DNA of 63,893 bases, counting the filler, from Reclinomonas americana ATCC 50394 (Eukaryota), in the NCBI GenBank assembly GCA_048213135.1. It is 13 parts of 13 records of this genome, joined end to end, with 100 filler letters (N's around TTAATTAATTAA, not from the genome) between each part and the next. Parts side by side here need not be neighbours in the genome. Positions count along the whole stretch, not along the records: positions 52,222 to 62,782 come from AFZH01018414.1; 12 more parts are not named here. One strand, given 5' to 3'. The translations under genes were made by a program, and so were the position numbers. Positions 57,747 to 60,363 of the stretch are shown piece after piece (within the stretch, counting starts at the first letter, position 1; every line of letters starts with the position of its first letter). The notes below the pieces were generated by a model. It did not search any database. It saw only the letters and a program-made list of their open reading frames with translations, and was not told the origin of the DNA.

Positions 57747-57998
57747 ATGGGATCCGCCCACAGTCAAGAACATGGAAGCTCGCACGCCGGCACCGACACC
57801 ACAGTGTTGGGTAGCGACGACAGGGTGAGAGTGAACTCTTGGTTTTGCTCTCTGTTGTTGAGTGGTGTGCTCATTTCACCACCATTCGCGCAGGTGATTA
57901 GCACAAGCACCAGTGGAGGTGTCGACCAGGATGGTGGAGCCACCAACTCACCCAGCTACGGCCTCAGTGCAACAATTCCACTCCCGATGCCCGAGTAA
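57747..57998 (+). CDS. MGS microprotein 1 (60 aa; exons 57747-57824, 57894-57998)
   Basis: MGSAHSQEHGSSHAGTDTTVLGSDDR|VISTSTSGGVDQDGGATNSPSYGLSATIPLPMPE*; phase-0 GT-AG intron shared with 3 paralogs. Confidence 0.85.
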   Translation: MGSAHSQEHGSSHAGTDTTVLGSDDRVRVNSWFCSLLLSGVLISPPFAQVISTSTSGGVDQDGGATNSPSYGLSATIPLPMPE

Positions 57999-58500
57999 GC
58001 CAGAGTGAGTGTGAGAGTGAGAGTGAGTGAGTGCGAGAACATTACCGCAATGTAATATTGATCGTGTGGCTGTGTATGTGTGTGCGTGTGTGTGTGTGCG
58101 TGTATGTGGCAGAAGAGAACTGATGTGAGTGTGTCTGTCGACACGTGCAGAGTTTCACTCGCTCTCTCTCGCCATTTTATCATGCTTGCGTGTCACCTCT
58201 CTTGTATGTGCCTTGTACACTCTCCTCCCCCCTCTCTCTCCCTCACGCAGGGTAGTCGTGTCTCTGTGTGTATGCACCGGAACACGCTGCGCATGCAGTT
58301 GCGGTTTTTCACACGCATATCAATGCGATTTCCTCCTGCACGACTCCTCTCGCTCTCACATGGCCTTTTTCCGGCCACAGCTGGTCGCACAAGGTGCAGC
58401 TACGTACACTGGCAGCACATCGCGCACTTCAGTGTGCTCGCGGACACTCCATTGCAATTGTTCTTCGTTCTTGTGAGCCAAAACACACACGCAAACACAA

Positions 58501-58783
58501 ATGGGATCAGTTCCGGGACACCAGGCACACTCGGAGATCTACGGACCCGTCGACCACTCTTCTGTCTGCAACCCGTCCATCGTGGTGGACGAAGCGGACA
58601 AGGTGCGGGAGAATGACTGCTGCTGCAGATTTGAGTTTTTCGCGTCTTGTTGTTTTCACACAACTGTTTGCTGCTGCTGTTGCGCAGGTGCACAGCTCGA
58701 GTCACAGTGGCGGTATTGAGCAGGAGGCTGTGGTCATTAATGCGCCCAGCTGCGAGCCGCCTGGGCTTCCTGGGCCCGAGTGA
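58501..58783 (+). CDS. MGS microprotein 2, divergent (65 aa; exons 58501-58602, 58688-58783)
   Basis: MGSVPGHQAHSEIYGPVDHSSVCNPSIVVDEADK|VHSSSHSGGIEQEAVVINAPSCEPPGLPGPE*. Confidence 0.75.
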
Positions 58784-59336
58784 TCACGAGTTACGTACTA
58801 GTGAGGGAGTGCGAGAAGGTTACCGCACTGCACAACGCAGCAGTGTACCTATCAATCGTTGTGGCCTTTGTGTCATGGCGTTTCTGTGGGTGCTTGTCTC
58901 TGCTTGCTGAGTCGCAGCGAGTGTCTCTTTCTGTCACCGTCCACAGTGTCAAGCAGACGTCTAGACGATCACTGGCGATCGAAAGCTCTCTCCGTGTCCA
59001 CGCTCCTGCGAACACTGGCACACATACACACGACTGTCTTGTGCACACACAGCACGAGTGCATGTGTGTGCCTGATATCGATCGGTGGCCTTTTGATTCA
59101 TGTGCACGTGATCACAGTTTTTGCGCACGTTCGCAGCGCACTGGTTTTTGGTCGACTTTGCAAAGCCGCCTCAGCCACTGCAGTCGCAGCAGTGCCCTTG
59201 CGAAGCACTGCGATGAGCCGCAACAACACCAGCCGCTGCGCAGAAGCAGCACTTCGAGACTTGTGTCCCACACTGTTTTCTTTTCTTCTTGCGAGCCAGC
59301 ACACTCTCTTCTCTCTCTCTCTCTCACACACACACA

Positions 59337-59603
59337 ATGGGATCCGTTCACAGCCAAGAATCTGGACACTCGCAAGCTCACACCGACACCACAGTACTGG
59401 GCGATAACGATCAGGTAAAAAGAAGAGCACGAGCACGTGCACTGGTTTCACTGCAGCAGTTGTTTCAGTTGCTGAATGCTGTGCCTGTGCATTTGCAGGT
59501 GACAAGCACAAGCACCAGCGGCGGTGTCGACCAGGACGGACACGCGACCAACGCACCCAGCTACGGCGTCAGCGCATCAATGCCACTACCGATTCCCGAG
59601 TGA
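59337..59603 (+). CDS. MGS microprotein 3 (60 aa; exons 59337-59414, 59499-59603)
   Basis: MGSVHSQESGHSQAHTDTTVLGDNDQ|VTSTSTSGGVDQDGHATNAPSYGVSASMPLPIPE*. Confidence 0.85.
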   Translation: MGSVHSQESGHSQAHTDTTVLGDNDQVKRRARARALVSLQQLFQLLNAVPVHLQVTSTSTSGGVDQDGHATNAPSYGVSASMPLPIPE

Positions 59604-60116
59604 GAGATCTTGAGTGAGCGACTGCGAGAAGTTATCGCAGCGAGATAGTCAAGTGAAAACTTGCACTTTGCAACTTGGTTGTACGGGGCGACGTGGTCCG
59701 TGCATGTATGACACTGCGGAGTGTTGAGAAGCAGGGCGGTCGTCATCGCTGCACTTCGTATTCTTCACTCTCCTTTGAATTCAATCGCGATCGTCTTGTG
59801 CACCACGTCATGACAGGCCTGCCTATCCTTCAGTGCGTCACCCATGCGTCTGCAGCTTGCTTGCTTGCTGCTCATGAACGCATGCGAATGTGGTGCGCCG
59901 ACATTGGGCAATTGACTTGCAATTGTTTGCCTTCGTGCATGCACTCGCAGCATCGCACCCACATCACTGCTATCGTATGCAGCCACAGTTACCGCTGCAT
60001 GACGCTTGTGTCTGTCTCACACGCTGCCTTGGCTTTCACTTCACGTTGGTGTGCCTGCTGTCCCAAACACAAATCATTTGCCGGCACTCTCATTCTCGAG
60101 CAAACACACATACACA

Positions 60117-60363
60117 ATGGGCTCTGCCACCAGCCAAGAATCCGGAAACTCGCACGCCGACACCAACACCACGGTGCTCGGCCAGGACGACGAGGTGCGT
60201 GCGAGAACTTCTCTCAAGTCATGCAGCTGCGTTGCTAATACGACGTGGTGCTGGGTGCGTGCAGGTGCAAAGCACGAGCAACAGTGGCGGAGTCGACCAG
60301 AGCGGTGGCGCCACCAACTCGCCCAGCTTCAACATGTCGCTGCCGCTCCCCATTGACGAGTGA
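60117..60363 (+). CDS. MGS microprotein 4 (58 aa; exons 60117-60194, 60265-60363)
   Basis: MGSATSQESGNSHADTNTTVLGQDDE|VQSTSNSGGVDQSGGATNSPSFNMSLPLPIDE*. Confidence 0.85.

Follow-up and report, generated by a model that had tools for sequence, protein, structure and literature searches.

Among the described systems closest to the locus reported here, the HASPA and HASPB genes of Leishmania are lineage-specific, clustered and multi-copy (the HASP/SHERP, or LmcDNA16, locus). Their products, according to PMC2946902, are small hydrophilic proteins that lack a signal peptide or transmembrane segment, begin with Met-Gly and are predicted or shown to be N-myristoylated. The same source reports that targeting of HASPB to the plasma membrane requires both myristoylation and palmitoylation, the HASPs carrying Cys5 for the latter modification. 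Calcimembrin (C16orf74) of vertebrates is presented in PMC12612047 as a disordered microprotein that is myristoylated on Gly2 and acts as an adaptor through short linear motifs; it is S-acylated at Cys7 and Cys14, and dynamic S-acylation mediates its association with membranes. In a different kind of system, NLR-associated amyloid signalling (HET-s/NWD2, PP and sigma), the same motif is found at the N-terminus of the receptor and on the effector domain, as set out in PMC5485727. We analysed a tandem array of four predicted two-exon genes, each encoding a peptide of 58–65 residues, in DNA of Reclinomonas americana ATCC 50394. The window (the whole stretch of DNA analysed, 63,893 nt) consists of 13 parts joined end to end, and adjacent parts need not be neighbours in the genome; the array and its near neighbours lie on the part at 52,222–62,782, which comes from AFZH01018414.1. 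We tentatively interpret the products as a family of lineage-restricted, N-myristoylated, disordered, acidic, Ser/Gly/Thr-rich and adaptor-like microproteins, a reading to which we give slightly less than an even chance.

Gene models were obtained by reading the interval 57300–61000 and enumerating the GT..AG joins that keep the frame open through the core motif shared by the copies. One consistent two-exon model emerged for each of the four copies, all on the plus strand (Table 1). The ATG-to-ATG distances are 754, 836 and 780 bp, in agreement with the four co-oriented genes, about 750–840 bp apart, that had been proposed from a first look at the sequence (hereafter the original prediction). 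The common start context and the single intron position of that proposal also held. The context is ACACAATGGG in copies 1, 3 and 4 and ACACAAATGGG in copy 2, and the intron, of phase 0 throughout, interrupts every copy at one and the same codon of the alignment. The donors of copies 1–4 (AGG/GTGAGA, AAG/GTGCGG, CAG/GTAAAA and GAG/GTGCGT, the slash marking the junction) have the usual exon-AG/GT(A/G) form, and the acceptor is CAG/GTG at the end of every intron. No upstream in-frame ATG is common to the copies. The statement that an open-reading-frame track recovers none of the genes intact proved correct for copies 2 and 4, which need splicing, but not for copies 1 and 3, whose stop-to-stop frames (57543–57998 and 59217–59603) contain both exons. 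As introns 1 and 3 are stop-free multiples of three, splicing is needed to keep the frame only in copies 2 and 4. The open frame of introns 1 and 3 may well be due to chance in GC-rich sequence. Were these two introns (57825–57893 and 59415–59498) retained, the in-frame products would be 83 and 88 residues long and the inserted part more hydrophobic.

Repeat finding independently grouped four copies of exon 2 into one family and three copies of exon 1 into another. A profile built from the four peptides, run against the 1,560 six-frame open frames of the window, matched only the six exon-bearing frames (E ≤ 8.5e-10), the next-best frame having an E-value of 0.63. Since the profile matches only its own exon-bearing frames, the resemblance within the array is more than chance. 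There is no fifth copy in the window, where tblastn with the eight exon peptides matched the array only. The window also contains twelve pairs of 44-base N runs, the members of each pair separated by 12 bases (for example 4020–4119, 52122–52221 and 62783–62882), and none of these falls inside the array.

The manner in which the copies have diverged supports purifying selection on the reading frame. In segment-wise pairwise alignments, copies 1, 3 and 4 are 73–74% identical in exon 1 and 69–83% identical in exon 2, whereas identity across all six pairs is 27–46% in the introns, 26–47% in the 120 nt upstream and 32–51% in the 120 nt downstream. The ratio of nonsynonymous to synonymous divergence (dN/dS, Nei-Gojobori), which the original prediction had named as a check, is 0.26–0.56 across the six pairs and hence not near 1, with dN lower than dS in every pair. 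Values of dS are 0.58–2.0, from which we take the copies to be old tandem duplicates. The synonymous excess gave Fisher p-values of 0.00047–0.013 in five of the six pairs, which are not independent of one another, and p=0.096 for copies 2 and 4. In every pair, differences are more numerous at third codon positions than at either of the other two. When copies 1 and 3 are compared frame by frame, no other stop-free frame has a ratio of nonsynonymous to synonymous differences (pN/pS) as low as that of the annotated one, at 0.41 for exon 1 and 0.32 for exon 2; all five alternative frames of exon 2 are interrupted by a stop in at least one copy. Invariant columns number 21 of the 68 aligned; 13 of them are written with more than one codon, Gly2 (GGA three times, GGC once) and Ser3 (TCC twice, TCA and TCT once each) being among these. 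Start, stop, splice sites and frame are intact in all four copies despite dS of up to 2. Judged on these grounds, the array very probably consists of real protein-coding genes, and the four copies are paralogues, which in the most likely reading form a lineage-restricted family. The earlier proposal that the coding parts are conserved while introns and spacers diverge, under selection on the peptide, is borne out.

The four peptides share a Met-Gly-Ser start, an S-x-S-x-SGG[VI][DE]Q core, an N-x-P-S element and a Pro-rich tail that closes in Glu-stop, the last of these exactly as originally described. A T-T-V-L-G stretch precedes the intron in three of the four copies. The longer core written in the original prediction survives in part: SGG[VI][DE]Q and N-x-P-S recur in every copy, whereas copy 2 reads I-E-Q and is without the Gly and the A-T that come next in that core. 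The 243 residues comprise 42 Ser, 30 Gly, 20 Thr, 19 Val, 19 Pro and 18 Asp, with a single Lys and a single Arg in total (Lys plus Arg 1, 1, 0 and 0 in copies 1–4); Gln and Asn together make up 22. Isoelectric points lie between 4.05 and 4.70, net charges at pH 7 between −6 and −8 and grand averages of hydropathy between −0.32 and −0.74, so that the description of the peptides as acidic and almost free of Lys and Arg is accurate. Cysteine is absent from copies 1, 3 and 4; copy 2 has two, Cys23 and Cys56. The most hydrophobic stretch of 15 residues, near the C-terminus, has a Kyte-Doolittle mean of only 0.25–0.55; thus, neither a signal peptide nor a transmembrane segment is evident. AlphaFold2, run on the intron-retained form of copy 1 with a six-row alignment, returned a mean predicted local distance difference test score (pLDDT) of 53.8, a predicted template modelling score (pTM) of 0.11 and no secondary structure. 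The peptides are probably intrinsically disordered. A complex prediction for four copies of the 33-residue exon 2 peptide scored 0.02, against a mark of 0.32, which is evidence neither way. An EF-hand or RTX-type calcium loop in the core was considered and dropped by eye, as Asp and Gly are not spaced as in the consensus of either.

According to the Introduction of PMC3724820, the consensus for N-myristoyltransferase (NMT) is M-G-x-x-x-S/T-x-x. Met1-Gly2-Ser3 stands at the predicted start of all four copies, and copies 1, 3 and 4 have the strict form of the consensus by virtue of Ser6, as had been proposed. Copy 2, whose lack of Ser6 had likewise been noted, has Gly6; the residue at position 6 is small in every copy. 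All four match the very permissive pattern G-{EDRKHPFYW}-x(2)-[STAGCN]-{P}, copy 2 included. This pattern we take to be PROSITE PS00008. On balance, the sequences lean towards myristoylation of Gly2, if the genes are expressed. In the mechanism that we favor, Met1 would be removed and NMT would acylate Gly2. The single myristate would provide a weak or switchable attachment, either to a membrane or to the hydrophobic pocket of a partner, and the S-x-S-x-SGG[VI][DE]Q core, the N-x-P-S element and the Pro-rich tail ending in Glu would be sites of docking or modification. The peptides would accordingly serve as small lipidated adaptors or regulators, and neither as enzymes with a fold nor as building blocks of a structure. 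In proposing this we infer that the genes are expressed and spliced, that the products are myristoylated and are disordered in vivo, and that a partner exists; what the sequences show is the gene structure, the paralogy, purifying selection on the frame, the composition, the absence of a hydrophobic segment and the match to the NMT consensus.

Several points weigh against such a mechanism. The NMT consensus is permissive, and copy 2 fails its strict Ser/Thr6 form. A Met-Gly start is in itself weak evidence, since the G at +4 of the start context favors Gly2 anyway. The low AlphaFold2 confidence is a weak sign of disorder, as the alignment was shallow and the form intron-retained. To our knowledge, the motif has no known partner or reader. 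The peptides have no second membrane signal, while both lipidated comparators, HASPB and calcimembrin, additionally need palmitoylation. A single myristate alone binds membranes weakly, and a strong negative charge opposes binding to acidic membranes. Stable membrane anchoring is doubtful and the less likely outcome, given the lack of Cys in copies 1, 3 and 4 and of any basic patch. The term "membrane-anchored" in the original prediction thus went further than these sequences allow, all the more so at net charges of −6 to −8. If the peptides are myristoylated, the absence of a second signal would set them apart from HASPB and calcimembrin, and suggests a myristoyl switch or binding within a protein pocket rather than a stable anchor.

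The comparison with the described lipidated proteins is one of likeness in kind. The HASPs have a Cys near Gly2, which none of the array peptides has; the HASPBs contain internal amino-acid repeats, which the array peptides do not, and the array genes contain an intron. General library searches returned no relatives of any kind, the HASP sequences not having been aligned directly. Calcimembrin, as described, offers a model for how the array peptides may work, with no homology claimed. It differs in having the calcineurin motifs PxIxIT and LxVP, neither of which was seen by eye in the four peptides.

The original prediction recognized no family, and our searches agree. Pfam gave no family at E ≤ 1 for the four microprotein queries, and a profile search of the PDB gave nothing at E ≤ 10. 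In the protein library, neither the three candidates of near length for the read-through form of copy 1 nor the 4,950 candidates among longer proteins for the alignment profile reached E ≤ 10. Pattern matches in viral contigs (37) and in prokaryote genomes (7) yielded no confirmed relative. In the protein atlas exon 2 had no usable match, and the best score of the read-through form, 0.75, was under the stated noise level. A full-text literature search returned no paper with the core-motif strings, and scanning the window for Rfam families and tRNAs gave no match. Two apparent matches were set aside. One of these, from a profile search of protein representatives (P0001; E 1.7e-5, five stretches), was spurious, a short S-G-G-V stretch having been counted five times; its five-fold repeat is presumably immunoglobulin-constant-like. 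The other, the only one of 21 pattern matches in metagenomes to pass tblastn (L001), was a chance identity of 11 residues within an unrelated open frame of 392 residues. This absence of relatives carries less weight than it might seem to, since the libraries are made up of predicted proteins and gene prediction seldom picks up eukaryotic microgenes with two exons. The source organism also seems poorly represented, as a 482-residue BNR/sortilin-like frame of the window had a best match of 35% identity. We regard the array as an orphan family, new in sequence but of a kind that is loosely known.

Table 1. Predicted genes of the array, associated non-coding elements and neighboring genes, in window coordinates. 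The predicted starts of copies 1–4 are 57747, 58501, 59337 and 60117. UTR, untranslated region.
Feature	Position	Strand	Description
Copy 1 exon 1	57747..57824	+	26 codons, Met-Gly-Ser start
Copy 1 intron	57825..57893	+	69 nt, phase 0, GTGAGA..GCGCAG; in frame and stop-free if retained
Copy 1 exon 2 with stop	57894..57998	+	34 codons and TAA; predicted product 60 residues
Copy 2 exon 1	58501..58602	+	34 codons; 8 residues more than the other copies; Gly6
Copy 2 intron	58603..58687	+	85 nt, phase 0, GTGCGG..GCGCAG; frameshift if retained
Copy 2 exon 2 with stop	58688..58783	+	predicted product 65 residues; most divergent copy
Copy 3 exon 1	59337..59414	+	26 codons
Copy 3 intron	59415..59498	+	84 nt, phase 0, GTAAAA..TTGCAG; in frame and stop-free if retained
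Copy 3 exon 2 with stop	59499..59603	+	predicted product 60 residues
Copy 4 exon 1	60117..60194	+	26 codons
Copy 4 intron	60195..60264	+	70 nt, phase 0, GTGCGT..GTGCAG; frameshift if retained
Copy 4 exon 2 with stop	60265..60363	+	predicted product 58 residues
3' UTR box, copy 1	58022..58052	+	21-nt core begins 31 nt past stop
3' UTR box, copy 2	58800..58830	+	87% identical to copy 1 box; core 24 nt past stop
3' UTR box, copy 3	59620..59639	+	one base shorter; core 17 nt past stop
Conserved leader, copy 1	57691..57746	+	pyrimidine tract, GAGCCA, CA-rich stretch to ATG
Conserved leader, copy 3	59261..59336	+	same elements as copy 1 leader
Second WD40 repeat gene	50819-51967	-	Pfam WD40 E 2.8e-41; divergent from P-loop gene in window
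Candidate multi-exon P-loop NTPase gene	53198-55931	+	Walker A 53522-53545; Walker B-like 54081-54104
WD40-only gene	56408-57499	-	about seven regular repeats, 126-132-nt periodicity; first ATG 57499
HAD-type phosphatase, S6PP-like	61582-62834	+	DLDGTLV motif 61738-61770; downstream of array

Outside the coding exons, copies 1–3 share a box of about 30 nt in the 3' UTR; copy 4 lacks it. Two occurrences of the 21-nt core of the box were counted in the window, compared to 0.03 expected by chance. The box may form a short hairpin, in which one paired G-C to C-G change distinguishes copies 2 and 3, and the folding z-scores are modest (−1.96, −1.34 and −2.02). Its conservation suggests that the copies share post-transcriptional control. 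On the 5' side, a leader that runs from a pyrimidine tract through GAGCCA to a CA-rich stretch is common to copies 1–3; this upstream element may belong to a core promoter or to the 5' UTR, or may serve as an acceptor for trans-splicing. A pyrimidine-rich tract stands before each ATG, with GAGCCA or GAGCAA 19–44 nt upstream (for copies 2 and 4 the leaders are at 58470–58500 and 60085–60116).

The ATG of the WD40-only gene and that of copy 1 are divergent, with 247 nt between them. A pyrimidine tract and an AG just inside the 5' end of the WD40 gene make an upstream exon possible. Beyond it lies the candidate P-loop gene, whose frames gave only sub-threshold Pfam matches (AAA_22, AAA_16 and NPHP3_N) and whose GT..AG joins are too ambiguous to define the gene; it may be STAND-like. 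A candidate 83-nt intron within it (54130–54212) resembles the introns of the microgenes in its pyrimidine tract and GCAG acceptor. A Ser-rich open frame (60790–61581) lies between the array and the phosphatase. Elsewhere in the window there are long GT/AC microsatellites of 26–83 units (10323–10408, 23285–23364, 25376–25541 and 62985–63036), and an open frame at the right end (63363–63893) has more than 50 glutamine codons.

Whether the array has a translated product at all deserves consideration. The genome is GC-rich (about 57%), with incidental open frames abundant on both strands, and between copies 1 and 2 the non-coding 3' box is 87% identical, compared to 41–56% for the coding exons. 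The copies might be repeats, transcribed or not, that are held alike by exon-limited gene conversion or by constraint on the RNA or DNA, their open frames being incidental. Gene conversion limited to the exons could indeed make these more alike than the introns, but it cannot yield the dN below dS that is seen in every pair, nor does it alone give dN/dS below 1. The concentration of differences at third positions, the invariant residues written with varied codons, and the intact start, stop, splice sites and frame of all four copies also speak against this account, and we hold it to be improbable. Coding and selection are equally well supported if the peptides are selected microproteins that are not myristoylated. 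They would then be soluble, acidic and disordered, for example His/Asp/Glu-rich peptides that act in metal binding, in stress or like chaperones, or else substrates of phosphorylation, and it would be the translation context or processing of the N-terminus that preserves the Met-Gly-Ser start. The 1–5 His and 7–9 Asp plus Glu of each copy, the missing second membrane signal, and a start context with G at +4 that is conserved at the DNA level are all in keeping with this alternative. In contrast, Gly2 and Ser3 persist although their codons have changed synonymously, and position 6 is small in all four copies, which points to selection on the N-terminal peptide itself. We regard a family without the lipid as unlikely, though as carrying an appreciable share of the probability.

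The remaining alternatives assign the conserved core a more specialized role. Small genes in several copies, whose core and Pro residues are conserved and whose flanks vary, would suit precursors of processed or modified peptides, be they secreted signals or akin to ribosomal natural products, with the core as the recognition or core sequence. Yet the N-terminus is not hydrophobic, dibasic sites are absent (at most one Lys or Arg per peptide), and no processing or tailoring enzyme genes were recognized among the neighbors scanned. Precursors of this kind usually vary in the core from one family member to the next, whereas here the core is conserved. The processed precursor of the original prediction, with neither a signal peptide nor dibasic sites, is thus left with a slim chance. 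The same prediction had offered self-assembly, with the peptides as amyloid or beta-solenoid-like signalling or coat subunits; in the form considered here they would be tied to NLR-like neighbors, and the core would be a templating amyloid, as in fungal NLR-effector pairs. The array does adjoin a WD40 gene with very regular repeats (E 1.9e-61), the P-loop gene with its Walker A and Walker B-like motifs is nearby, and the Gly-rich core is nearly palindromic. Short motif-bearing products encoded beside STAND/WD40-type genes are described in PMC5485727, with bacterial equivalents in 10.1101/2020.01.06.895854. Unlike in those systems, the array motif is not common to the neighbors. The search for it in NLR-like proteins, which had been suggested as a check, was run within the window and found the core nowhere else: the next-best frame of the profile had the E-value given above, and the best tblastn match outside the array (E 0.032) was on the strand opposite the WD40 gene. 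None of the 4,950 longer library proteins carried it either at E ≤ 10. The peptides, at 58–65 residues and with no Pfam match at E ≤ 1, have no HeLo-like or other effector domain, and the WD40-only gene and the separate P-loop gene are on opposite strands and probably do not make up one NLR. The core is acidic and is followed by a Pro-rich tail, the 22 Gln and Asn among 243 residues are the wrong composition for a Q/N-rich amyloid core, as is the peptide as a whole for a hydrophobic one, and AlphaFold2 predicted no strands. Of all the readings we considered, self-assembly is the least probable. The same neighbors permit a further proposal, in which the peptides would be lipidated ligands or adaptors of the WD40 beta-propeller whose gene is divergently transcribed from the 247-bp region shared with copy 1. 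Peptides, propeller and the nearby STAND-like P-loop ATPase would make up an NLR-like sensing module of a protist, split over several proteins. The propeller would be tethered or gated by the myristoylated peptide, much as lipidated G-gamma acts on G-beta, without homology. To this proposal we assign a small probability.

The reading that we tentatively prefer is thus a family of N-myristoylated, disordered and adaptor-like microproteins. Eukaryotic gene finders, and protein libraries with them, routinely overlook genes that encode some 60 residues in two exons, and the array is a clean case in which the comparison of paralogues alone gives good evidence of coding and of selection. If its products are indeed myristoylated, the family would be a protist example of a lipidated disordered microprotein.

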